Shown here one piece after another: positions 9,104 through 50,656 of a DNA stretch of 64,000 nt. The notes beneath the pieces are model-generated. The model worked only from the letters and a program-made list of their open reading frames with translations, was not told where the DNA came from and made no database searches. The translations under genes and the position numbers were made by a program. The stretch lies in the NCBI GenBank assembly GCA_022795155.1, contig JAAWGF010000001.1:74826-138825 (forward strand), read 5' to 3'. This DNA comes from Bacilli bacterium. Its GTDB lineage: Bacteria > Bacillota_I > Bacilli_A > RF39 > UBA660. The first letter of the stretch is position 1. Every line of letters begins with the position of its first letter.

Positions 9104-10930
9104 ATGTCGAAAATAATGGTCATGGATGAAATTTTGGCTAATAAAATTGCGGCTGGTGAAGTCGTTGAAAAGTGTGCTTCAGTTGTCAAAGAATTGGTTG
9201 AAAATAGTATTGATGCTGGTAGTAATGAAATTAAAATAGAACTTATTGATGCTGGTACAAAACAAATTAGAATTATGGATAATGGTAGTGGTATGGATAG
9301 GGAAGACGCTATTTTAGCCTTTTCCCGCCATGCGACAAGTAAACTAAAAACAGAAGATGATTTATATCGAATTGAAACATTGGGATTCCGTGGTGAGGCT
9401 TTAGCTTCCATTGCGTCTGTTAGTAAAATTGAATTAAAGACGTCAACTGGTGGGGTTGGTACGTCAGTAATTATTAATGGTGGTAAAATTGAAAATGTTA
9501 ATGAATCTGATTCACGGGTTGGAACAGTTATAACTGTCAGTGATTTATTTTATAATACACCAGCCAGATTAAAGCATTTAAAAAGTTTATATACAGAGTT
9601 AGCTAATATTACTGAATATGTTAATAAAATGGCTTTATCGCATCCTGAAATCAAGTTTATTTTAATAAATAATGGTAATACTATTTTAAATACCGATGGA
9701 TCTAGTAATTTGCTAAAAACAATTTCGTCTATTTTTGGAATTAACATTGTCAAAAAAATGGTAGAAGTAACTAATGAAGATAATGATTATATTGTAAGTG
9801 GTTTTATTACTTTACCAGAAGTTATGAGATCTAGTCGAAATGGTATCATAACTTTAGTAAATGGACGCGTAGTTAGAAATGTCGATATTAATAGAATTAT
9901 TAATGATAGTTATCATGGTTATAAACCAGATAATCGATATCCAATTGTCGTATTAAATATTGAAGTTGATCCAAGTTTGGTTGATGTTAATATTCATCCT
10001 ACTAAGATGGATATTAAATTTGGTAAAATGGATGAATTATTATCTTTAATTGAAAATATGATAAAAAAAACTTTAAAGAAACAAATGTTAATACCTCATA
10101 TTGAGGTTCCTTCAAATACTAACTTTATTGGCTTTGATGTTAAGGATAGTATTGAAGATAAAGCAGAAATGGAAAAACCAAAATATGAAGAAATAACTTT
10201 GGATTTAGAAAGAGTTGGTGAAGAAGAAACTTCATATTTATCTTCAAGTTTAGAAGATAATCGACAAATAAATAGTGCTGAAACGCAAGAAAGAACGATT
10301 ACTGATGAAAATCGTTTATTTGATATTGAAGAAAGTACTGAAAAACTACCAGAATTATATCCAGTTGGTCTAGTTCATGGCACTTATATCATTTGTCAAA
10401 ATGAGCGTGGTATGTATTTAATAGATCAACATGCCGCTAAAGAAAGAATTAATTATGAATACTATCGTGAAAAATTAGGAAATCCAAAACCAGATTCAAT
10501 TTCGATGTTAATACCTCTTACAATTGAATTTCCAAATAATGAATATATGATTTTAAAGGAAAACTTTTTGATTTTAGAAAATATGGGTTTTGAAATTGAT
10601 GAATTTGGCGTTAATTCAATCGTGATAAAAGCTCACCCAACTTGGATTCCTATTGGAAATGAAGATAAAGCTATTAATTTAATTCTTGATTTGGTTATTA
10701 ATAAAGAAAAAGATTTTTCGCTTGCTAAATTTAATGAGCATGTAGCTGCTACAGTTAGTTGCAAGGCATCAATTAAAGCTAATGAGAATATTACTTTAGA
10801 AGAAATGGAAAATTTAATAAGCGATTTACGAAAATGTAAAAATCCGTTTAATTGTCCACATGGGCGTCCTACAATGATTTATTATTCAAAATATGATTTA
10901 GAAAAATTATTTAAACGAAGTGGTTTTTAA
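9104..10930 (+). CDS. mutL: DNA mismatch repair endonuclease MutL
   Basis: NKIAAGEVVE, GFRGEALASI, DVNIHPTK, DQHAAKER, SCK and CPHGRP motifs. Start moved from 9056. Confidence 0.98.
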   Translation: MSKIMVMDEILANKIAAGEVVEKCASVVKELVENSIDAGSNEIKIELIDAGTKQIRIMDNGSGMDREDAILAFSRHATSKLKTEDDLYRIETLGFRGEALASIASVSKIELKTSTGGVGTSVIINGGKIENVNESDSRVGTVITVSDLFYNTPARLKHLKSLYTELANITEYVNKMALSHPEIKFILINNGNTILNTDGSSNLLKTISSIFGINIVKKMVEVTNEDNDYIVSGFITLPEVMRSSRNGIITLVNGRVVRNVDINRIINDSYHGYKPDNRYPIVVLNIEVDPSLVDVNIHPTKMDIKFGKMDELLSLIENMIKKTLKKQMLIPHIEVPSNTNFIGFDVKDSIEDKAEMEKPKYEEITLDLERVGEEETSYLSSSLEDNRQINSAETQERTITDENRLFDIEESTEKLPELYPVGLVHGTYIICQNERGMYLIDQHAAKERINYEYYREKLGNPKPDSISMLIPLTIEFPNNEYMILKENFLILENMGFEIDEFGVNSIVIKAHPTWIPIGNEDKAINLILDLVINKEKDFSLAKFNEHVAATVSCKASIKANENITLEEMENLISDLRKCKNPFNCPHGRPTMIYYSKYDLEKLFKRSGF

Positions 10931-35388: not shown

Positions 35389-36474
35389 ATGAATAATAAT
35401 GAACAAGTAAATCAAGATTTATTTGATATATTAGAAAGTCATCATCAGGATGTTCATAATAAACAAGTACTTGATAAATATGAACTTGCAAAAAAAGAGT
35501 GTTCAAAACTAATAAAAGCTAAACTTAGTATTAGTAAAAAACAAGTTGCAAAAGTTGTTGGGTTAGCACTTGGAACGGTTGTTGTTTTTTCAGGATTTAT
35601 GAATTTTATAAGGATTAATAATATTGAAAAGTCATTGAATAATGATACTACAGTTGTAGAGGAAGACACATCTGTTAATGAAGATACAGTTGTATCTACT
35701 CCAGATATAGTATTTTATGATACGGAAATAGAAAAACCAATTGAAGATAAATCTCCAGAATTACCTAAAATTGAATTATTTGATGTAGGCAATAATAAAT
35801 ATATAGACTATGTTTATAATTATATGGATACTAGTGAGTATGAGCTTTTTGAAGAAAGTTCTTCTATTTATAAAGTACCTTCACAAATTATGGTAGCTAT
35901 CGGTATGCAAGAGGCGGCTTTAAATCATAATGAATGTTTACCTAATGGTAAATATTATAATGGCTGTGCGATTGGAATATTACAATTAGAACAAAACTGT
36001 AATAATGCCGTAAGTGCCTATAATTATCTGTCTAATTTCGAGGAAGATGTTAGATATACTGATGAAGAATTGTGTAATATAGAGAATAATATCCAAGTGG
36101 GTTGTATGAGATTTCAGCAAGCAATTGAAAAATATGAAGGCAATGTCTATGTCGCGATTCAAGCTCATAATTATGGTCAAATAATGATGGATAAAGCTTT
36201 AAATTGTGCCGCCTTAGAAAAAGGCGTAGAAGTAACAGAATTATTAAATGATTATCAGGATTTAACTTGGTTAAAATATGTTAAGGATATTCATAATAAT
36301 CCTAAAAAATATTTAGAGTCTTGGCAGTATGATACTTATGGTAGTGGGGATTATTTATCGAGAATTTTAAGTTATTGTCCTACTGATAAAGTTACTTATC
36401 AATATAATGGAAATGAAGTTACATTTGATTTAAGATATGGCATTAGTGAAATAGTAAATAATAAATATAAGTGA
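35389..36474 (+). CDS. Membrane-anchored lytic transglycosylase (SLT/lysozyme-like) protein
   Basis: One TM; AIGMQE, GILQL, NIQVG, AIQAHNYG motifs. Confidence 0.7.
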   Translation: MNNNEQVNQDLFDILESHHQDVHNKQVLDKYELAKKECSKLIKAKLSISKKQVAKVVGLALGTVVVFSGFMNFIRINNIEKSLNNDTTVVEEDTSVNEDTVVSTPDIVFYDTEIEKPIEDKSPELPKIELFDVGNNKYIDYVYNYMDTSEYELFEESSSIYKVPSQIMVAIGMQEAALNHNECLPNGKYYNGCAIGILQLEQNCNNAVSAYNYLSNFEEDVRYTDEELCNIENNIQVGCMRFQQAIEKYEGNVYVAIQAHNYGQIMMDKALNCAALEKGVEVTELLNDYQDLTWLKYVKDIHNNPKKYLESWQYDTYGSGDYLSRILSYCPTDKVTYQYNGNEVTFDLRYGISEIVNNKYK

Positions 36475-36574
36475 TTAAATTAACAATTGAATAAATTGTT
36501 TTTTTTATTGAATTTTATAACGTTTACTTTTTTTACAATTTTTGTTATATTTAATGATAGATGGAAGTGGTATT

Positions 36575-38344
36575 ATGAAGAAGGTATGTAATTTTATTTG
36601 TAAGTATAAATATCAAGCTTTATTAGTACTCTTATATTTAGTATTATTTTATCAAATGCAAAATGTCTTTTTTTATGGTGATGATTATGAAATATTATAT
36701 CCATATCATAATTCACATGATTTTTTTAATGTTTTAAATTTTGTTATGAATAAAATGCATTATTTTTGGTATGAATGGTCTGGGAGAATTGCAGTTCATT
36801 TTACGGCTACTTTTGGTTCGTCAATGTTTGGAATTTCTTTTTTTAAATTTTTAAATCCTATAATGATTTTTACTTTTTGTTATTTGTTGACTAAAATATT
36901 TTCTTTGTTTAAAGATTGTAATTTTTATAAAGTTTTGACTGTTATATCATTATGTGTTATCGGTTTAAATATTAGTATTTCTCGAGATACTTTATATTGG
37001 CTATCATCAACTATACCATATATTTGGTTTTTTAATTTAACATTATTAACTATATATATAGTATATAAGAATTACTTGTTGGGTAATAATATATCTAAGG
37101 GGCATTTTTTAATTTTAGTTTTAATTTGTATTACGCAAACGTTTGCTTTAGAACAAATTACTTTTATTTTATTATCATTTTTTTCAGTTATGCTATTTTT
37201 TGCTGATAAAACTAAAATTAATCGTAAACAATTGTTTATATTGTTATGCTTAACAATTATTAGTTTTTTAATAGTATCGTTTTGTCCGGGAAATATTTCT
37301 AGGTCAGATGTTCAAAATACGGAATTAGTTGGTTTTTCTTATTTAGAAATTTTATTAGGAAAATGTTACAAGTTTCTTTGTTATATGTTAGATACTAATT
37401 GTTTAGGTAGTTATGTATTAGTATTGAGTATATTAGTTAAAAATGTTTATGATAATAGTTATAAACTAAATAAAACTAGTCTGTCATCAATTATTTTTTA
37501 TGTTTATTTTATAATTGTTCTATTTAATATATTTTTCCCTAATAGTAACACTTTTTTAAATTTTGCTGATTCAATTGATACATTAGAATTTGGTAGTTTA
37601 AATTATATGGCTATTATTTTTCAAATATTTATCTTTAGCTGTTTTTTGCTTAATTTAATATATATGATATTTAAAACCTTAAAAAAAGAAAAACGCTTTT
37701 TTCTAAATGCTTTTTTGATTTCGTTAATTTCTTCAATGATGCCAATTTTATGTGTTAGATTTGTTACTCTACGTTATTTTATTTATCCGTTAATAGTAGT
37801 AATTATTCTTAGTATTTTATACTATGAATCTAATTTTGAAAATAAGGACTTTAAAATAGAAAATATTATTTTACTTGGTATAAGTTTGGGATTTAAATGG
37901 GCAATTATAGTTTGTTTAATAGTAACATTAATACATGTTTTTGTATTTAAGAATGCTAGAATTAAGATATTTGGTTATTTAATTATGATGATTTTATTTT
38001 ATAATATAATAACAACTTTAGTTGGGTATTATAAAAATGGCATCATTTATCGAAAAAATATTGAATCATTTGTAAATGCAGTTGCTGATAAACCAATATT
38101 TTTGGAAGAGGTTCCTTATGAGAATCGATTGTATACATGGCATGCGATTGAACTTGATTATAATCATATAAGGCAATATTATGGCTTTTATTTAGAAGAT
38201 TTTTATGAAAATTATTATGGAATTAATGTCGAAAATGTTTATATTTATCATAATGTCAATTCTTGCCAAATTAATTATGTTTATTTAGGTAGATATGATT
38301 ATGACCAATTTTTAAAATATAATTATTCGGTCGAAAGTTGTTAA
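36575..38344 (+). CDS. Polytopic membrane protein, DUF6056/GT-C-like
   Basis: YGDDY in first loop, WSGR, YWLSST..Y.W, CPGN..R; about 12 TMs. Confidence 0.5.
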   Translation: MKKVCNFICKYKYQALLVLLYLVLFYQMQNVFFYGDDYEILYPYHNSHDFFNVLNFVMNKMHYFWYEWSGRIAVHFTATFGSSMFGISFFKFLNPIMIFTFCYLLTKIFSLFKDCNFYKVLTVISLCVIGLNISISRDTLYWLSSTIPYIWFFNLTLLTIYIVYKNYLLGNNISKGHFLILVLICITQTFALEQITFILLSFFSVMLFFADKTKINRKQLFILLCLTIISFLIVSFCPGNISRSDVQNTELVGFSYLEILLGKCYKFLCYMLDTNCLGSYVLVLSILVKNVYDNSYKLNKTSLSSIIFYVYFIIVLFNIFFPNSNTFLNFADSIDTLEFGSLNYMAIIFQIFIFSCFLLNLIYMIFKTLKKEKRFFLNAFLISLISSMMPILCVRFVTLRYFIYPLIVVIILSILYYESNFENKDFKIENIILLGISLGFKWAIIVCLIVTLIHVFVFKNARIKIFGYLIMMILFYNIITTLVGYYKNGIIYRKNIESFVNAVADKPIFLEEVPYENRLYTWHAIELDYNHIRQYYGFYLEDFYENYYGINVENVYIYHNVNSCQINYVYLGRYDYDQFLKYNYSVESC

Positions 38345-38413
38345 TTTGTATTGTTTTACTTATTTACATTAAATAGAAAATAATATATAATAACATTTAA
38401 GTGAAGTGATAAT

Positions 38414-39442
38414 ATGACGAATTTTAAATGGAATATGATGGATATAATGGATGATTTTCAGACGGTAAATAATAAAATGGCTCTGCCTAAAAATAGTCGT
38501 AATATATCATTGTATTGTGATGTTCGTAGGCTTAAGTCATTATTAAAAAAATATCCTAAAATATATTTAAAAAATTTTGCAAAAGGTTATTATCCACATC
38601 TTAAAAGGCAATATGAAAAAATTTTTAATAAAGAATTTGAATATATACTAAATATTATTATTGATAATATTGTAATCTTTAGAAAGTTATTTAGTAAAAT
38701 TGCTAATGCCGATTTTGATATAAATGTTGAAATACCACTAGATACTATAGCAATAGATAATGAATTAGTTAATTGTTTGAAGTCTTTTTTTGGTAACTAT
38801 AATCATAATTTGTTACTATATTTTGAACAATTATATAATAATCATAATATTAATATTGAAGATTTTGCCTATGATGAATATGCTGGTGAATGTATTAATA
38901 TTAGTAGTTTAAATAAGCAATATATAAATATTTATTCAAGAAATATTATTCCATCTATTATTCATGAAGTATCTCATGCCTATGAGTTTCGAATAGAAAA
39001 AGATATAAAGTCATGGTTTTATGATATTAATTTATATAATGAGAGTTTTGCTATTATTACGACATTAATTGGTGATGAGTATTTTCAAGGTTCAAATTAT
39101 TGTTTAAGCGCTATAACTGATAAGGTTTCTTTTTTACAGACTATTTATATTTTAGCAAATAATTTATATTATGAATTAATGCATGGAATGACTAATTTTT
39201 CTCTTTCTGATTTTATTTATGCATATGATGCTAATATAGCTATGGCCTTGGCAGAACAATATCAAAACAATCCTAAAGAGGCTAAAAAAAATATTGATTA
39301 TTATTTAAATAATAGTTCTACTGATTTTTCTAATAAATTATTAAAAAGTATTGATATTGATTTAAATAGGTTATATAGTGGGGATTATTATTTAGAATAT
39401 TATAAAAGTACAAAAGAAACCGTAAAAAAACTCTATTTATAA
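38414..39442 (+). CDS. Putative zinc metallopeptidase (M3-like core)
   Basis: IIHEVSHA (HExxH) with downstream NESFA. Confidence 0.5.
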   Translation: MTNFKWNMMDIMDDFQTVNNKMALPKNSRNISLYCDVRRLKSLLKKYPKIYLKNFAKGYYPHLKRQYEKIFNKEFEYILNIIIDNIVIFRKLFSKIANADFDINVEIPLDTIAIDNELVNCLKSFFGNYNHNLLLYFEQLYNNHNINIEDFAYDEYAGECINISSLNKQYINIYSRNIIPSIIHEVSHAYEFRIEKDIKSWFYDINLYNESFAIITTLIGDEYFQGSNYCLSAITDKVSFLQTIYILANNLYYELMHGMTNFSLSDFIYAYDANIAMALAEQYQNNPKEAKKNIDYYLNNSSTDFSNKLLKSIDIDLNRLYSGDYYLEYYKSTKETVKKLYL

Positions 39443-39461
39443 TTAAATGAGGTGGTATTTA

Positions 39462-40244
39462 ATGGAAAGATATCTGAGTATTGTTTTAAGTGAGGATTGT
39501 CATATATCTAAAACTTTAATGGCTGATAATAGTTATGAATTAGATAAATATATTTATGATCATTTTAAAAATTCAGAACAAGTTAGACAGAAATATAGTT
39601 TACAAATATCCTCTTTTTTAGATGAAAATAGAAATCTTATTCATAGTATTGAAGATAAAACTAATAAAATGTATCGTGGACAGATTGTTATTTTAAAAGT
39701 TAATGAAGATGGAACTTTAAAACGTATTAAAGTTATTTATAAAAGTGATGTAATGCGAATAAAAAATGGACTTTTACTAGATCAGGAATTTATGAGAAAA
39801 TTTGTTTATAATAATCGAAAATATTTTTCGCAATTTATTTATTATAAAACTAAAAATAATCAAAGCCAAACTTTTTATCAAAAAATGATGAATGAATTTT
39901 ATAATAAGATTAAGACAGATTGTTCTTTTTTTAAATTTTGTCGTACAATTTTAAAATATGCCGAAGAATATGATGATAAAAATTCAATTAACATCGTTGA
40001 TAATAAATTAGAAAAAAAGGATAATGTGAATTCGTTAATGTTCCCTAATGATGCTATAGATGATAGTGATGAAACCCCAGATCCTGATTGGGATTTTCAT
40101 CCTGATTTAGATGAAGTAGCTATGGGGAGGTATCTAGATGATGATACTATCAGTTATAATATAGAAGATGACAGTGATAAAAAAGTAAAAACTAATGTAA
40201 AGATTTATAAAAGGGATCCTAATCAGCTTTCATTTTTTGACTAA
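39462..40244 (+). CDS. Hypothetical protein with acidic C-terminal region
   Basis: GAGGTGG RBS before ATG 39462; no recognisable motif. Confidence 0.7.
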   Translation: MERYLSIVLSEDCHISKTLMADNSYELDKYIYDHFKNSEQVRQKYSLQISSFLDENRNLIHSIEDKTNKMYRGQIVILKVNEDGTLKRIKVIYKSDVMRIKNGLLLDQEFMRKFVYNNRKYFSQFIYYKTKNNQSQTFYQKMMNEFYNKIKTDCSFFKFCRTILKYAEEYDDKNSINIVDNKLEKKDNVNSLMFPNDAIDDSDETPDPDWDFHPDLDEVAMGRYLDDDTISYNIEDDSDKKVKTNVKIYKRDPNQLSFFD

Positions 40245-41918: not shown

Positions 41919-42242
41919 CTACGATTTTTTTATTGTAATAATATCGCCTATTTTATAATCAACCAAATTTGCGCTGAATTCATAAGTATAGAAAACATTT
42001 TTTTTAGGTAAGATAATTTTCCATGGTTTTAAATTTTTTATGACATAAATTACAGTGTTGTTAATATCAGTCATAACAATATCGATATTTTGTTTCATGA
42101 AAAAGGTATGAATACTATTACATTTAGGAAAACAAAGTGCATAATCAATTTTTTCTTTTTTAAACATAAGACCTAGTAACCGGGTTTTAAAATTCTTACA
42201 CATTATAATATTTATTTCCATATTATTCCAAATAATTTTCAT
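41919..42242 (-). CDS. DUF192 family protein
   Basis: RLLGLMFK, CNSIHTFFM...IDIV, LKPWK; divergent from the tad locus. Confidence 0.8.
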   Translation of the reverse strand: MKIIWNNMEINIIMCKNFKTRLLGLMFKKEKIDYALCFPKCNSIHTFFMKQNIDIVMTDINNTVIYVIKNLKPWKIILPKKNVFYTYEFSANLVDYKIGDIITIKKS

Positions 42243-42279
42243 AACCTCACCAAATAGAATATAACACAAAAAAAATAGT

Positions 42280-42341: not shown

Positions 42342-42539
42342 ATGAAGATGAATAATAGAGGTCAAGCATTAGTTGAATACATTTTAATTATCGCGGTAAT
42401 TAGTGTTGTTGTTGTAAGTATTGTTAAATTATTAGGCGGATATTTACAAGATTCGATGACTAAGTCTTCTTGTGCTTTAGTTGATAAAGTTTATGTTGAA
42501 GGTAGCAAACCTGGCGAAGGAACTTGCGTTGATAAATAA
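42342..42539 (+). CDS. flp: Flp-type major pilin
   Basis: RG|QALVEY prepilin motif (E5, Y6), hydrophobic helix, C-terminal Cys pair; GGAGG RBS. Confidence 0.88.
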   Translation: MKMNNRGQALVEYILIIAVISVVVVSIVKLLGGYLQDSMTKSSCALVDKVYVEGSKPGEGTCVDK

Positions 42540-42635: not shown

Positions 42636-42974
42636 ATGAAGAATAGTAGGGGTCAAGCATTAGTTGAGTTTATTATTGTTGTTCCAATCTTAATATTTAT
42701 TATTATGGCTATTATTGATTTTGGAAATATTACTATAAAAAAAATGCGATTAGAAAATAGTTTAGATACGGTTGTGTCTTTGTATCAAAAACAGGATTTT
42801 GCATCAATTCAAAATTTAACGCTAAGTGATGATTTTAGTTTTTCATATTCCAAAAACCAAAATATATCAACAATAGTTCTTAAAAAAAATGTTAAAATTT
42901 TTACACCATTTTTAAATCTTATTTTAGGTGAAAACTATTTGTTAGAAACTAGTAGGGCTGTTTATGAAAAATAA
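42636..42974 (+). CDS. tadE: TadE-like minor pilin
   Basis: RG|QALVEF.IV.P prepilin motif. Confidence 0.8.
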   Translation: MKNSRGQALVEFIIVVPILIFIIMAIIDFGNITIKKMRLENSLDTVVSLYQKQDFASIQNLTLSDDFSFSYSKNQNISTIVLKKNVKIFTPFLNLILGENYLLETSRAVYEK

Positions 42975-43374
42975 TCATGGACAAACATTAATTCTATTTA
43001 TATTTATTTTGCCAATTATTATTAGTTTAGTTTTATTACTTATAAATTATAGTTTTTTAAGTAATGAAAAACTAAAACTTACAAATAATGTCAAAATGGC
43101 GATAGAATATGGTTTAAAATTGAAATTAGATGATAGTGTTGTTGAAGATGGTTATTTAACTAATACAGAGATAAAAAATAAAATCGAATATTTACTACAA
43201 CAGAATATATCATATGATACCATGGATATTGCTGTTAATGATACTAATATTATGATTAATGTTACTAAAAGATTTGATAATTTTGTGAAGATATTAAATT
43301 TTTTTCCAACTGATATTGAACTTAAATTTTATGGAACTATTAATAATGGTCAAATAATGATTGAGAGGCGATAA
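42964..43374 (+). CDS. TadG/TadF-like pseudopilin lacking Glu5
   Basis: HG|QTLILF..ILP. Confidence 0.65.
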   Translation: MKNNHGQTLILFIFILPIIISLVLLLINYSFLSNEKLKLTNNVKMAIEYGLKLKLDDSVVEDGYLTNTEIKNKIEYLLQQNISYDTMDIAVNDTNIMINVTKRFDNFVKILNFFPTDIELKFYGTINNGQIMIERR

Positions 43375-43376
43375 AT

Positions 43377-44150
43377 ATGGCAGTTAAGCAGGCAGATGTT
43401 TTAACAGTTACTTCGGTTAAGGGCGGAACAGGTAAAACAACTAATGTATTAAATATAGCAGGTATTTTAAGTGGTATTGGTAAATCAGTATTAATTATTG
43501 ATTTAGATTTATATACAGGCGGAGTGGCATGTAGTCTTAATATTGATAATGATAAGGATTTATTTTTACTTGTTAATGATATGAGTAATAATAAATTTGA
43601 TTATTTAGAAAATTATATTGTTAAATACAATGATAAGATTGATGTCATTCCAGCACCTAAGGATCCACGTGATGCTTCTAAAATTAGCGCAAAATATTTA
43701 AATGTTGTTCTTTCTAAAGCTAAAATGAAGTATGATGTTGTTTTGATTGATACTAATCATTTATTAACTGATAATAATTTGGTCATTTTAGATAATAGTG
43801 ATGTTATTTTATATTTTATTAGTAATGATCCAATTGATTTAAAAAATATGAGATCAATGATATCTATTTTTAAAGATATGGAAGTAGATAATTATCGTAT
43901 AGTTTTAAACAATTCATTAAATAGAGATAAGAATATGTTTAATAATTATGATATTAAAACAGTTATAAATAATAAAGTTGATTATATTTTACCTTCAGCA
44001 TTTTATGAAAAAAATATTAATCGTTATGTAATGAAGGGTGAAATTATTACTTTAGATAAAAAGTATATTAGTAATCATAGGAAGGAAATACTTTCTTATC
44101 AAATATTTCTAGAAGGATTGTTAAAAAAGAAGGTGAAAAATAATGACTAA
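43377..44150 (+). CDS. TadZ/CpaE-like ParA/MinD-family ATPase
   Basis: SVKGGTGKTT, LIIDLD, YDVVLIDT; upstream of tadA. Confidence 0.8.
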   Translation: MAVKQADVLTVTSVKGGTGKTTNVLNIAGILSGIGKSVLIIDLDLYTGGVACSLNIDNDKDLFLLVNDMSNNKFDYLENYIVKYNDKIDVIPAPKDPRDASKISAKYLNVVLSKAKMKYDVVLIDTNHLLTDNNLVILDNSDVILYFISNDPIDLKNMRSMISIFKDMEVDNYRIVLNNSLNRDKNMFNNYDIKTVINNKVDYILPSAFYEKNINRYVMKGEIITLDKKYISNHRKEILSYQIFLEGLLKKKVKNND

Positions 44151-45486
44151 AAAAAAATTTGTTGAAGAATTTGATATTGAAATTGAACAACCAAATTTAA
44201 AATATGTTAGTGATTATGATACTTTTGAGAATAAAAACCTGTTAGATGAATTAAGAAATAAAATTATTCAAAATCTTATTGATGATAATTTTAAAAATAA
44301 TGGTTCAATGGATGAGTATGTTAAAAAGGAAATTGATAAGACAATAGCTGGTTATGATTTATCAAATGTTGAAAGAAGTTATATTTATAATTTGATTGAT
44401 AATGAAATAAATGGGTATGGGCCTATTTCAGAATTATTAGAAGATAAAAGTATTACTGAAATTATGGTTAATGGTATTAATGAAATTTATATTGAAATCG
44501 ATGGTCGCGTTATCAGAGATGAGAGTGTATCTTTTATAAATGAAGATCATATAATTAGAACTATTCAAAGGATGATTCAACCATTAGGTAGAACAATTGA
44601 TACTTCTAATCCTATGGTTGATGCGCGTCTTAATGATGGTTCAAGACTTAATGCGGTTATTCCACCATTATCTTTAAATGGGCCGATTTTAACAATTAGA
44701 AAGTTTAAGGATGAACTTGCGAATATTGATGATTTTTTACGTAGTGGTGCTTTAACTCCTTATATGGCTAGATTTTTAGAGGCGTGTGTTCAAGCTAAAC
44801 TTAATATTATTATAAGTGGTGGAACGGGTAGTGGTAAAACAACGCTTTTAAATGTTTTATCTTCATTTATTAATCATGATGAGCGCATTATTACCATTGA
44901 AGATGCTGCTGAGTTAAAACTAAAACAACAACATGTAATTTCTTTGGAAACACGCTTGGTTAATTATGAAGGTCAGGGTGAGGTTACAATTCGCGATTTA
45001 GTTATTAATTCTCTTCGTATGCGCCCAGATCGAATTATTGTTGGTGAAGTTCGTGGTAAAGAGGCTTTTGATATGTTACAGGCTATGAATACTGGACATA
45101 GTGGTAGTTTAACTACTTTGCATGCTAATTCACCGGTTGATGCTTTAAATCGCCTTGAAACAATGATTTTAATGGCTGGAATGGATATACCTATTAAGGC
45201 TTTAAGAGAGTATATTGAAAATGCGATTGATATCGTTGTTCATATTGAAAGATTAAACGATGGTAGAAGAAAAATAACAAGTATTTGTGAGATTGTTGGG
45301 TTTGATGAGGATACAATTAAATTAAAAGAGATTTTTGAATTTAAGAAAACGGGTCTTTTAAATAATCGTGAGGTTGATGGAGAATTTGTGCGTCACAATT
45401 ATATTCCTAAAGTGTATAAGGAATTAAAAGCTAAAGGTATTGATACATTAAAGGATATTTTTGAAGTTGGAGAAAAGAATGCATAA
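44143..45486 (+). CDS. tadA: Tad pilus assembly ATPase TadA/CpaF
   Basis: [37 protein letters not shown]. Confidence 0.96.
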
Positions 45487-47044
45487 TTCGAATGGATTGA
45501 GTATTGATTCTTCATTAACGCCAACTAATCAAGATATTAATATTATATTTACACCTACTTCCAATGTAGTAAGTTATAAATATCGTATCTTTAAAAATGC
45601 TAATGATAATTTAACGACAGCATCAGGAACTTTAGATAATCCAACTATTATCTATAGTGAATATGGAATTAATAATAATCTCCCTAGCAATATTGTTTTA
45701 ACAGAAACAGGAAATTATCAATTAGAAATAATTACGACCGATTTTAATGGTAATAATCAGATTATTAATAGTGGTATTTATGTTATTGATAAAGAAGCAC
45801 CAGAAATCGTTTTAAAAAATTATAATAATCATACTGTTGATTATAAAAAGGGCGAAACAGAATTTGATGTTTTAGATGGTGTCACTGTTTTTGATAATTA
45901 TGATGGTGACATATTAAATAAATTGGTAACTAACTATGATGAATTGGATTTAAGCAAAGAGGGTATTCATGAATTGAATTATCAAGTTGTAGACCAAGCT
46001 GGGAATGTATCTATTAAAACACTAAATATAAATGTCTTAAAAAGTGATCTTAGTATTATTCATCTTTGGCAAATTTTAATTTTACTTTGTTTATTACCAA
46101 TTATTATTTATATATTGATTTATAATCGTTCAACGAGACTAGAAAAGAGATTAACTAAATATAGTGTTGAGCCTATAAAAAAAAATACAGTTTCATTATT
46201 TGACCATGTTTTAACTATATATAAGAAAATAATTTTTAATTTGAAATCCATTCTTTTAAAATCAGTTTTTATTTCTAAACATCGTAAAAAATTTGATAAG
46301 TATGTTGGAATTGTTGATAATTTTCATAAAGATGGTTTAGAATTTATTTGTAGTAAAATATTAGCTGGGGCTTTAGTGTTAATTTTGGCTATTTTTATTA
46401 AAACACTTCAGTTTAAAGTTCTAGCACTAGAGGAAGTTTTTATTCCGATTGTTTTAGGTTATTTATCTTTGAATATTTATTATATATTTAGGTATAAACA
46501 ATATCGTAGTCATTTAGAAAACGATTTGTTACAAGCTATTATTGTTATGAATAATTCTTTTAAATCAGGAAGAAGTATTACACAAGCGATTGAACTAGTT
46601 ACTAAAGAGTTGGAGGGTCCAATTGCCGATGAGTTTAAATTGATGCATATGCAACTACAATTTGGTTTATCATTAGATGTTGCTTTTTCTAGGTTTTCTG
46701 AACGAATTAAAATTGAAGAAGTTAATTATTTAACAGCTTCTTTAACAATTTTAAATAAAACAGGTGGAAATATTATTAAGGTATTTTCATCAATTGAAAA
46801 AACATTATTTAATAAGAAAAAATTAAAGTTGGAGTTAAAATCTTTGACTGGTAGTTCTAGAATTATTATGTATTTATTATCGGGATTACCTATATTTTTG
46901 GTTGTGGTAATTGCTATGATAAATCCTAATTATTTCGTAAGTTTATATACGACACCAATTGGATTAATAATTTTGTTAATTTCTTTGATAATTTATATTT
47001 CTTATATTATTGTTGTAAGAAAAATTATGAAAGTAGGGATGTAG
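45479..47044 (+). CDS. tadB: TadB platform protein with N-terminal Ig-like domains
   Basis: C-terminal T2SSF region (SGRSITQAI...GPIADEF...TGGN...); N-terminal DKEAPEI...DNYDGDI...YQVVDQAGN Ig motif. Confidence 0.85.
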   Translation: MHNSNGLSIDSSLTPTNQDINIIFTPTSNVVSYKYRIFKNANDNLTTASGTLDNPTIIYSEYGINNNLPSNIVLTETGNYQLEIITTDFNGNNQIINSGIYVIDKEAPEIVLKNYNNHTVDYKKGETEFDVLDGVTVFDNYDGDILNKLVTNYDELDLSKEGIHELNYQVVDQAGNVSIKTLNINVLKSDLSIIHLWQILILLCLLPIIIYILIYNRSTRLEKRLTKYSVEPIKKNTVSLFDHVLTIYKKIIFNLKSILLKSVFISKHRKKFDKYVGIVDNFHKDGLEFICSKILAGALVLILAIFIKTLQFKVLALEEVFIPIVLGYLSLNIYYIFRYKQYRSHLENDLLQAIIVMNNSFKSGRSITQAIELVTKELEGPIADEFKLMHMQLQFGLSLDVAFSRFSERIKIEEVNYLTASLTILNKTGGNIIKVFSSIEKTLFNKKKLKLELKSLTGSSRIIMYLLSGLPIFLVVVIAMINPNYFVSLYTTPIGLIILLISLIIYISYIIVVRKIMKVGM

Positions 47045-47047
47045 AAG

Positions 47048-47746
47048 ATGAAAAAAAATGGTTCCTTAATGAGCAGACTGTATCGTAATAAAACATTAGA
47101 ACAAATAAATACTAAAATTCTAATGTTAGGAAATGCTAAATTTGATGCTGTTACTTTCATGAATTTGCGACTTATTACAACAATCTTGATTTTTATTGTC
47201 ATTATATATTGGGGGAATTTAAGTTATATTTATGCTCCCTTTATGGCAATTATCTATTATGTATTATTTGAGTATTTATTTTTGAATAATAAATTGAAGC
47301 AGAGAGAAAAAAAATTAGATCATGAAGCCTTGACTTTTTTTGAAATATTAACTTTGACATTAGAATCGGGGCGTGATTTAGAAAGTGCGCTTGAAATAAC
47401 TTGTTTTAATACAAAGTCTGAGTTAAGCGATGAATTTAAAAAAACATTATTTGAAATGAAATTTGGCAAATCTTTAATGGAAGCATTAGAGGATATGAAG
47501 TCCAGAATTCCTTCAGAAACGGTTAATAATATTATTTTAAATATTGTTCAAACAAATATTTTTGGTAATAGTATTTTAGATACGATGTATAATCAAATTG
47601 AATTTCTAAGAGATAAACAAATATTAGAAATCAAAGAAAAAATTAATAAAATACCTAATAAAGTTAGTATTATATCAGTTATATTTATTGTGCCATTGAT
47701 TTTATTGTTATTATTAGGTCCATTTTTAATTGAGTTTATAGGTTAA
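47048..47746 (+). CDS. tadC: TadC platform protein
   Basis: LESGRDLE.AL, SELSDEF, FG.S..EALE; final TM with LLLGP. Confidence 0.85.
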   Translation: MKKNGSLMSRLYRNKTLEQINTKILMLGNAKFDAVTFMNLRLITTILIFIVIIYWGNLSYIYAPFMAIIYYVLFEYLFLNNKLKQREKKLDHEALTFFEILTLTLESGRDLESALEITCFNTKSELSDEFKKTLFEMKFGKSLMEALEDMKSRIPSETVNNIILNIVQTNIFGNSILDTMYNQIEFLRDKQILEIKEKINKIPNKVSIISVIFIVPLILLLLLGPFLIEFIG

Positions 47747-49309: not shown

Positions 49310-49796
49310 TTTAACTAAGAAAAAACACTTTAAAAGTTTATTAAGAGGTCAACTAAAAACGATATTAGTTTTTTTACTATTATTTACCTTTTGTTATTTT
49401 GCAATTAATATGGAGGCCTTTTTGTATAATTTCCCTTATAATACCCCTGTTGTCTTAATTACTTATGTTATATATTTGTTTATTATTTTTGTAATTATGT
49501 TTTTAATAAGTCTTATTTATTCATTAGTGATAATTATTATGTTTAAAAAAAATATGGCTTATCGTACTTATGAATATAAAATAAATGATAATAAATTAGT
49601 TGAAGAGAAAACCAAGTTTGTTCTTGATTTAAAAGAAATTAAAAATATTAAAATAACAAAAAAAGTGATTAAGCTATTTTCTTTTAGATTAAAACAAATA
49701 ATAACTTTTGAACGGGCATATTTTGATAATTATGATGATTTTAATAGGCTTAAAGAATTGTTTAAAAAAAGGAAGGATAATTTGGAGGTCATATGA
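49290..49796 (+). CDS. Two-TM membrane protein (YcxB-like C-terminal domain possible)
   Basis: Two TM helices followed by a short beta-rich domain. Confidence 0.5.
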   Translation: MIEFQYSLTKKKHFKSLLRGQLKTILVFLLLFTFCYFAINMEAFLYNFPYNTPVVLITYVIYLFIIFVIMFLISLIYSLVIIIMFKKNMAYRTYEYKINDNKLVEEKTKFVLDLKEIKNIKITKKVIKLFSFRLKQIITFERAYFDNYDDFNRLKELFKKRKDNLEVI

Positions 49797-50656
49797 AAAA
49801 GTTTTTAACGTTTATTAGTATTTTATTTGTTTTATTACCAATTCGTACTTTAGCAACTTCGGGTTTTTTAAGAAAAGACACAATAAAGGAATGTGAAGGT
49901 AATTTGTATGGGCAACATGGTAGTGATAATCACTGGCATATAGCAATTAAAAATGAAAATGGTAGTTATAGTGCTACAGGTGATGTTCTTCCAAATAATC
50001 CATGTCCTTTAAATGACGAAAATAATACGAATAGTTCAAATATTGATGATAAAACAGTAGCTATTTCACAAAATAGTGATAGCTCCTTAAAAGTAATAAT
50101 AATTGGAAATGAGAAAATTGATATTAAAGAAACAATGGAGTATAAGACAACAAAAGAAAAAATAGCATTAAATATTGTGGCAAATAATGAAAATGCTAAA
50201 GTAGAATACAATAAAATAGATAATTTGAAATTAGGGAATAATATTGTAAATATTAAAGTAACCGCAATAGATGGTAATATAACAAAATATATTTTAATTA
50301 TTGTTCGTGAAAAGGCTTTAGATACAAATACAGGTATCGAAGTAAAAATTGCTGGTGAAACTGTAGAATTTGCTGATTATAAATATAATTTAGAGGTAAA
50401 GAATAGTACTAATTCTTTAGATATAGATTATACTTTGGATAGCGAAAGTTCTAAAGTTATTATTGAAGGGAATGAAAGATTTGTAACTGGTAAAAATGAA
50501 GTTAAAATTATTGTAACAGCTGAGGATGGAACTAAGCAAGAATATATTATTATTGTTACTAAATTAGATTTGTTCAATAGTATTATTAAAATAATTTTAG
50601 GTAGTAGTGTAGTTGTCGCAATTATCGCTTTTATAAAAAAAATATTTAGTAAGTAA
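49793..50656 (+). CDS. Surface protein with cadherin-like beta-sandwich repeats and a His-rich N-terminal motif
   Basis: Signal peptide, YGQHGSDNHWH, two repeats ending I.VTA.DG....Y.I.V, C-terminal TM. Confidence 0.7.
   Translation: MKKFLTFISILFVLLPIRTLATSGFLRKDTIKECEGNLYGQHGSDNHWHIAIKNENGSYSATGDVLPNNPCPLNDENNTNSSNIDDKTVAISQNSDSSLKVIIIGNEKIDIKETMEYKTTKEKIALNIVANNENAKVEYNKIDNLKLGNNIVNIKVTAIDGNITKYILIIVREKALDTNTGIEVKIAGETVEFADYKYNLEVKNSTNSLDIDYTLDSESSKVIIEGNERFVTGKNEVKIIVTAEDGTKQEYIIIVTKLDLFNSIIKIILGSSVVVAIIAFIKKIFSK

Follow-up and report, generated by a model that had tools for sequence, protein, structure and literature searches.

A TadB platform protein with two N-terminal immunoglobulin-like domains in a Tad pilus operon of uncultured gut Bacilli

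The minimal Tad set of Gram-positive bacteria consists of TadA, TadB, TadC, Flp, and TadZ (PMC11300603). The TadB platform protein engages the ATPase through T2SSF, a cytoplasmic domain (PMC11300603, PMC12019362). Canonical TadB (CpaG) is about 300–340 amino acids long and has one T2SSF domain. Here we describe Ig-TadB, encoded at 45479–47044 of a 64,000-nucleotide stretch of contig JAAWGF010000001.1 from a Bacilli bacterium of the RF39 lineage (positions 74,826 to 138,825 of the forward strand; this whole stretch is called the window below). Residues ~193–521 of Ig-TadB align end to end with canonical TadB, and the two proteins share five hydrophobic segments, the T2SSF domain, and an operon place between tadA and tadC. 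In contrast to the canonical protein, which has 0–13 residues before its first transmembrane helix (TM1), Ig-TadB carries about 190 extra N-terminal residues that are predicted to form two immunoglobulin (Ig)-like domains, D1 and D2. D2 shares a family model and the signature DxxDGD...G-x-Y...D-x-x-G-N with the PF16403 repeats of large Gram-positive surface proteins. Unlike those proteins, Ig-TadB has just two copies, lacks a signal peptide and a wall anchor, and bears its copies on a polytopic motor component.

The gene and the parts of its product are as follows.

45469 to 45472, plus strand: Shine-Dalgarno sequence GGAG, 6 nucleotides before the Ig-tadB ATG, read from the sequence
45479 to 47044, plus strand: Ig-Ig-TadB gene, 521 amino acids, kept at full length in 80 loci
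45479 to 45787, plus strand: D1, residues 1–103 (approximate), a divergent Ig-like beta-sandwich; AlphaFold2 strands 12–103, predicted local distance difference test score (pLDDT) ~90
45788 to 46048, plus strand: D2, residues 104–190 (approximate), Bact_surface_Ig-like (PF16403, equivalent to DUF5011/HYR-type), from Pfam and AlphaFold2
46064 to 46120, plus strand: TM1, residues 196–214, Kyte-Doolittle mean 2.81, predicted N-out
46121 to 46342, plus strand: basic linker, residues 215–288, predicted cytoplasmic, 17 K/R versus 7 D/E, with two amphipathic helices
46343 to 46483, plus strand: TM2-TM3 hairpin, residues 289–335, from hydropathy; AlphaFold2 helices 286–310 and 321–362
46544 to 46912, plus strand: T2SSF domain, residues 356–478, a cytoplasmic helical bundle continuing into TM4
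46862 to 47014, plus strand: TM4-TM5 hairpin, residues 462–512, followed by a basic C-terminal tail predicted to be cytoplasmic

The open plus-strand frame at 45479–47044 encodes all 521 amino acids, and its ATG overlaps the stop codon of the upstream tadA/cpaF gene (ATGCATAA). Because an in-frame TAA lies 10 codons 5' of this ATG, leaving at most nine codons upstream, and because the only earlier starts (TTG 45461 and TTG 45467) would add MKLEKR or less, no choice of start gives the protein a hydrophobic leader. Across residues 1–190 the highest 19-residue Kyte-Doolittle mean is 0.58, and the N-terminus of Ig-TadB does not show the basic n-region and hydrophobic h-region of a cleavable Sec signal peptide. 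Hydropathy resolves five clear hydrophobic segments further along the chain, at residues 196–214, 289–307, ~315–333, 462–480, and 494–512.

The part of the protein that begins near TM1 is a complete TadB. Pfam places T2SSF (PF00482) with an E-value of 1.7e-13 and 51.1 bits against a cut-off of 25.2 bits, and Foldseek finds this domain to resemble the cytoplasmic domain of EpsF with a TM-score of 0.78–0.80. The full-length AlphaFold2 model (pLDDT 78.9) contains the Ig pair plus the helices typical of TadB. In an exhaustive search of representative proteins, about 25 fused clusters ranked first and were followed by proteins of 320–340 amino acids (~330); these canonical relatives align over their whole length to residues ~193–519 of the query and have the TM1 homologue after merely 0–13 residues. 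As judged from this alignment, TM1 is homologous to the N-terminal helix of canonical TadB, and the Ig part reads as an add-on to a complete five-helix TadB. The domain match, the collinearity, and the operon context together identify Ig-TadB as a bona fide TadB/T2SSF platform protein. The reading frame, Pfam, AlphaFold2, and hydropathy thus bear out the preliminary description of this locus, which had proposed two Ig-like units without a signal peptide and with an entire TadB behind them.

Both N-terminal domains are predicted with confidence. An AlphaFold2 model built on an alignment of 65 N-terminal sequences contains two beta-sandwiches, with strands at residues 12–103 and 109–187 (pLDDT 92.2, predicted template modelling score 0.82). 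PF16403 matches at about residues 133–186 with 22.9 bits when the whole protein is scanned, which is under the 27-bit cut-off; with the N-terminal part scanned alone the score reaches 27.8 bits against a gathering threshold of 27. The family was matched in 64 of 65 homologues, with a best E-value of 3.7e-12. D2 carries the motif DNYDGD, of which D139, G143, and D144 are invariant or nearly so among homologues. D1 has no Pfam family of its own and gave weak DUF4625 matches in 8 of 65 homologues. It may be read as a degenerate, PF16403-like copy of the domain type seen in D2, because its C-terminal half follows the G-x-Y...D-x-x-G-N...Y-x-I-D-K-E-x-P pattern of PF16403-type repeats (the DxxDGD motif is missing) and because giant repeat proteins align with Ig-TadB from about residue 70.

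When the full-length and N-terminal models were compared with the PDB using Foldseek, the best matches of the Ig pair were generic tandem Ig, FN3, BIg, Rib, and cadherin modules, and all were extracellular and of adhesin type (SiiE BIg, Rib, Fap1, internalin K, cadherin). None of the best matches listed in that comparison resembled RcpC, PilN/O, or FlaF/G, and neither a SAF nor an RcpC family appeared among the Pfam matches of the 65 homologues even at an E-value of 0.01. Mean pairwise identity is 35% for D1, 43% for D2, 36% for the TM1-linker region, and 75% for T2SSF. With identities near that of the transmembrane regions, the Ig domains are, on this comparison, under constraint consistent with purifying selection. 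These data bear on a candidate role of the Ig pair as adhesin or sensor, binding wall polymers, host glycans, or a neighbouring cell, or signalling surface contact through TM1 to the motor. The adhesin-type fold matches would suit such a role, as would the faster evolution of D1 and D2 relative to the motor-facing domain. However, the conserved residues of the pair are mostly structural or lie in the interdomain linker, no ligand-binding family was identified for it, and a membrane-proximal element only two domains long is probably buried under the wall. We therefore consider an adhesin or sensor unlikely.

The fusion is real, and a large group of uncultured gut bacteria shares it. In contigs from four runs, each of a different mouse-gut study, the tadA/tadB junction and the whole Ig region show zero differences, and near-identical sequence is present in many mouse-gut metagenomes. 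A search with residues 1–200 returned 22 protein clusters of 33–90% identity, all 478–529 amino acids long and all with T2SSF. A search with the TadB body returned 1,901 relatives, the best 120 of which comprise 119 of fused size (497–529 amino acids) and one of 359 amino acids. In a collection of species-representative genomes, at least 477 stretches encode a relative, and we examined 80 of these loci, whose sources include human, mouse, rabbit, chicken, and ruminant gut and some of which come from circular long-read assemblies. In 80/80, one uninterrupted frame leads from the tadA end across the Ig part and on into TadB. The first ATG lies at the tadA end, with the first hydrophobic segment at residues 164–195, in 74 of the 80; the other six have a GTG or TTG start at the tadA end and their first ATG further in. 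Gene order is likewise identical in 80/80.

Against this background, an assembly or annotation artefact, or a gene in decay, has a negligible probability and can be taken as effectively refuted already. Its one point of support is a low-coverage contig, L092 (4001–5137), that has an in-frame stop after TM1; set against it are the identical junction in four independent assemblies, the frame kept intact in all 80 loci, circular long-read assemblies included, and the confident AlphaFold2 model. The same contig figured in the search for a separate Ig gene, in which query residues 1–215 matched just three short proteins standing alone. Two are on contigs of 1.1 and 2.0 kb and were presumably cut at the contig end. 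The third is that of L092, where the stop and a short insert just after TM1, at 4.5x coverage, separate Ig-Ig-TM1 from the TadB body; this is either a sequencing error or a pseudogene. On these grounds the three proteins were rejected as evidence of a natural split between the Ig part and TadB, and no separate Ig gene is present in the plain-TadB operons L089, L091, and L082. The outcome that would have undercut the preliminary description, relatives with the Ig part in a gene of its own, thus did not materialise.

When TadB bodies were placed in a quick maximum-likelihood tree, the 19 fused representatives all shared one clade, with a Shimodaira-Hasegawa-like approximate likelihood ratio (SH-aLRT) support of 98. 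The clade also contains a few shorter forms, noted with the loci L084 and L091. P0044 (417 amino acids) has D1 only; P0035 (415 amino acids) begins within the D1/D2 linker and is a D2-only form or a truncated gene call; P0043 (349 amino acids) has no Ig part and shows the same tadC-murC synteny as a fused relative. Because one clade holds all fused representatives together with a few shorter forms, the tree indicates that the fusion arose within one lineage, and the Ig module appears to have been lost or trimmed several times.

A few relatives carry genes inserted between tadA and Ig-tadB. Those at 2840–4962 of L077 encode pilins of type IVa style (N-terminus KKGFTLIELLAVL...) whose C-terminal domains are large; at 9363–9959 of L048 just the C-terminal part of a similar protein is visible. 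The inserts hint that pilin classes may be mixed on one machine.

We next consider on which side of the membrane the Ig pair lies. The evidence comes from charge bias, helix count, the cytoplasmic location of T2SSF, the predicted end of TadC, and homology to surface-protein repeats. Between TM1 and T2SSF there are two hydrophobic helices joined by a 10-residue loop; TM1 would therefore run from outside to inside. Across 75 homologues, K+R counts per flank are 3.5–6.1 on the predicted inside and 0.2–1.4 on the predicted outside. Net charge averages +2.3 in the 15 residues after TM1 and +0.1 before it, so that the C-terminal flank is the more positive one, as in an N-out (type III-like) signal-anchor, and the downstream topology is consistent with this assignment. 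The N-terminal domain itself is acidic, with 14.8 K/R versus 24.8 D/E on average.

Comparison with described proteins points the same way. CpaG's N-terminal helices are positively charged and have been modelled to contact CpaF (PMC12019362); by analogy, the basic linker at 215–288 may correspond to these ATPase-contacting helices. Denise et al. traced TadC and TadB to the fission of a two-domain platform of which TadC was the first half (PMC6668835). TadC is predicted from its sequence to end outside, which fits a TadB that starts outside. P0166 and P0148 are examples of proteins that combine repeats of the D2 type with a signal peptide and a C-terminal anchor. We consider it likely that the Ig pair faces outward, as the preliminary description had proposed; this would be the only topology that fits a cytoplasmic T2SSF, five hydrophobic segments, and the positive-inside bias.

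The alternative is that the Ig domains stay in the cytoplasm and act on TadA, TadZ, or pilin delivery, or that the first helix is oriented non-canonically. The missing signal peptide is in keeping with this placement, and long leaderless N-tails are rarely translocated: in leaderless N-out proteins the translocated tails usually stay below about 50 residues, and lengthened versions are either not exported or need a preceding hydrophobic segment for export (PMC7616256). Ig-TadB has no hydrophobic segment ahead of TM1 that could aid export of the tail. The longest leaderless N-out tail known from well-studied bacterial cases is that of Escherichia coli ProW, at about 100 residues. ProW resembles the topology predicted for Ig-TadB: an acidic N-terminal tail that the first transmembrane helix places on the outside, with no cleavable signal; the Ig-TadB tail differs in being about twice as long and in comprising two folded domains, and its export is predicted from sequence. 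A cytoplasmic Ig pair, however, would need T2SSF to lie outside or the number of helices separating it from TM1 to be odd, in conflict with the hydropathy, the AlphaFold2 helices, and the charge bias. The resemblance of the basic linker after TM1 to the CpaG helices modelled to bind the ATPase also speaks against it, as does the occurrence of PF16403 repeats otherwise in exported proteins. A cytoplasmic location is improbable on this evidence.

The order of the operon around Ig-tadB is flp, tadE, tadE, tadZ, tadA, Ig-tadB, tadC, and together with a divergent DUF192 gene it is flanked by rpoZ and miaB.

41919 to 42269, minus strand: DUF192 (PF02643) gene, divergent from flp, found in about 34 of the 80 related loci and always at this place
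42342 to 42539, plus strand: flp pilin, 65 amino acids; Flp_Fap match with E-value 3.6e-5, below cut-off; G/QALVEY processing motif
42636 to 43374, plus strand: two TadE-like pseudopilin genes, 112 and 136 amino acids, with a TadE domain on the first
43377 to 44150, plus strand: tadZ/cpaE-like ParA-family ATPase, from Pfam
44143 to 45486, plus strand: tadA/cpaF ATPase; T2SSE E-value 9e-63; NCBIfam TadA-family E-value 1e-99, below that model's cut-off
47048 to 47746, plus strand: tadC, 232 amino acids, a single T2SSF from Pfam

The second TadE-like gene has an N-terminal motif in common with the first and a conserved position. DUF192 genes adjoining Gram-positive tad loci were also recorded in a 2025 paper on Bulleidia extructa (PMC12786226). 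The operon encodes no secretin, no RcpC/CpaB, and no prepilin peptidase, and a prepilin peptidase (TadV/CpaA, A24) was absent both from the operon and from 10 kb on either side of it in the relative L086; this enzyme must be encoded elsewhere or shared with another system. We read the host as a walled monoderm and not a wall-less mollicute because the window encodes FtsQ/A/Z, SpoIIGA, a sortase, FemAB, and an SLT transglycosylase. In one relative, MreC/D and MurC adjoin the operon. A few short complementary DNA contigs from faecal metatranscriptomes touch the operon, including 45683–45976, and are too weak as proof of transcription; one of the libraries bears a genomic label, and related strains account for some of the contigs.

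Three further features of the window were recorded. The Flp pilin is extended at its C-terminus by a stretch that holds two cysteines (...SSCALVDKVYVEGSKPGEGTCVDK), and cysteines are also present in L016, the one relative read; the pair suggests a disulfide-closed loop, which would be unusual for the normally minimal Flp. At 35389–40244 a transglycosylase with an SLT domain is followed by three open reading frames (600, 342, and 265 amino acids) without a Pfam or NCBIfam match, and parts of this block are kept upstream of the Tad operon in the closest relatives, L001–L006. Three genes downstream of tadC, at 49793–50656, lies a gene for a 287-residue protein with a signal-like N-terminal segment, a PF12733 domain, and a C-terminal membrane anchor. 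PF12733 is a cadherin-like beta-sandwich, and the protein is conserved in L001 and L002.

The preliminary description had also suggested that the Ig pair could replace the missing RcpC. On this reading it would stand in for the RcpC/CpaB alignment ring and, in a machine that has lost cpaB, be the sole extracytoplasmic conduit. RcpC is a dodecameric SAF/beta-clip ring that docks to the secretin, and it is likewise anchored by a transmembrane helix and located in the periplasm around the filament (PMC12307814). The Ig pair would resemble it as an extracytoplasmic, beta-rich module on a one-helix tether at the pilus base, and as the operon's only non-pilin extracytoplasmic protein part. Some monoderm Tad loci, such as that of TANB77, do keep CpaB (PMC11680825), and no RcpC/SAF-type gene was found in the operon or, in a fused relative, within 10 kb on either side (the absence of cpaB in relatives refers to this same scope). 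At the level of loci, however, the expected anticorrelation fails. The close relative L089 has the operon flp-tadE-tadE-tadZ-tadA-tadB-tadC with a plain TadB of about 330 amino acids, L091 and L082 have the same gene set, and all three lack both the Ig pair and cpaB. Minimal Gram-positive Tad systems have moreover been described without CpaB/RcpC (PMC11300603). The fold is tandem Ig and not SAF/beta-clip, the pair is fused to the platform whereas RcpC forms its ring as a protein of its own, a secretin to serve as docking partner is missing, and about three copies per machine are expected versus the dodecamer of RcpC. Replacement of RcpC/CpaB is accordingly an unlikely explanation that the comparison does not support.

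On balance we lean toward Ig-TadB being the platform subunit of a minimal Gram-positive Tad (type IVc) pilus in which the Ig pair faces outward as an accessory scaffold. The tail before TM1 of canonical TadB (0–13 residues) is predicted to lie outside, and from its place on this tail the Ig pair is therefore most likely outside as well. One lineage of uncultured, walled gut Bacilli would have gained a tandem Ig pair of surface-protein type at this position. The pair would project from the outer membrane face beside the pilus exit while T2SSF engages TadA in the cytoplasm. Two Ig domains span about 8 nm if extended, as estimated from typical Ig-domain size. Current models favour a TadA:TadB:TadC stoichiometry of 6:3:3; should each machine hold three TadB and three TadC, as these models propose, three Ig-Ig arms would stand at the platform periphery, encircling the growing Flp filament at its base. 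Close to the membrane and outside the cytoplasm, the arms could act as an accessory scaffold that holds machine and filament steady, or keeps them spaced, where membrane and wall meet, or they could bind wall material. Scaffolding at this interface is the most likely single role, although it is speculative and we put it forward only tentatively. Export without a signal peptide could use TM1 as a reverse signal-anchor together with SecA/SecYEG, YidC, or the proton motive force acting on the acidic tail, and the strongly acidic character of the tail would fit translocation assisted by the membrane potential. That a leaderless Ig tail of 165–195 residues is exported and that three copies form a minimal alignment collar at the base of the Tad pilus is possible rather than probable.

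Several points weigh against an outward scaffold. The orientation rests on rules of thumb, and leaderless export of 165–195 residues is an unproven assumption when the usual limit is about 50. The fold matches are generic and indicate no ligand, and a span of two Ig domains would probably not reach across a typical Gram-positive wall. Finally, the module is dispensable in evolution, given that the operon of sister lineages is otherwise the same but encodes a plain TadB, and that trimmed forms appear to exist.

The claim that this architecture is undescribed holds for the searchable literature, in which we found no account of TadB/T2SSF combined with Ig-like/DUF5011 domains and none under RF39 and Tad. 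Databases, however, already contain hundreds of PF16403+PF00482 proteins. Their labels go no further than "type II secretion system F family protein" or "tight adherence protein B", and NCBIfam has no model naming Ig-TadB.

Interest in the module is tempered by its dispensability in sister lineages and by the speculative nature of its role. Tad pili are colonisation factors, and the lineage that carries this variant is a prevalent group of uncultured, small-genome gut Bacilli. Of all parts of type IV filament machines, the platform proteins are understood least, and an ectodomain on TadB, if true, would give structural studies a ready starting point. A leaderless N-out tail of about 190 residues, if true, would represent exceptional biogenesis and test the rules by which N-tails cross the membrane. 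On the current view, the pilins are the sole extracytoplasmic component of monoderm Tad machines, and the TadB ectodomain would, if true, be the first non-pilin part of this kind.

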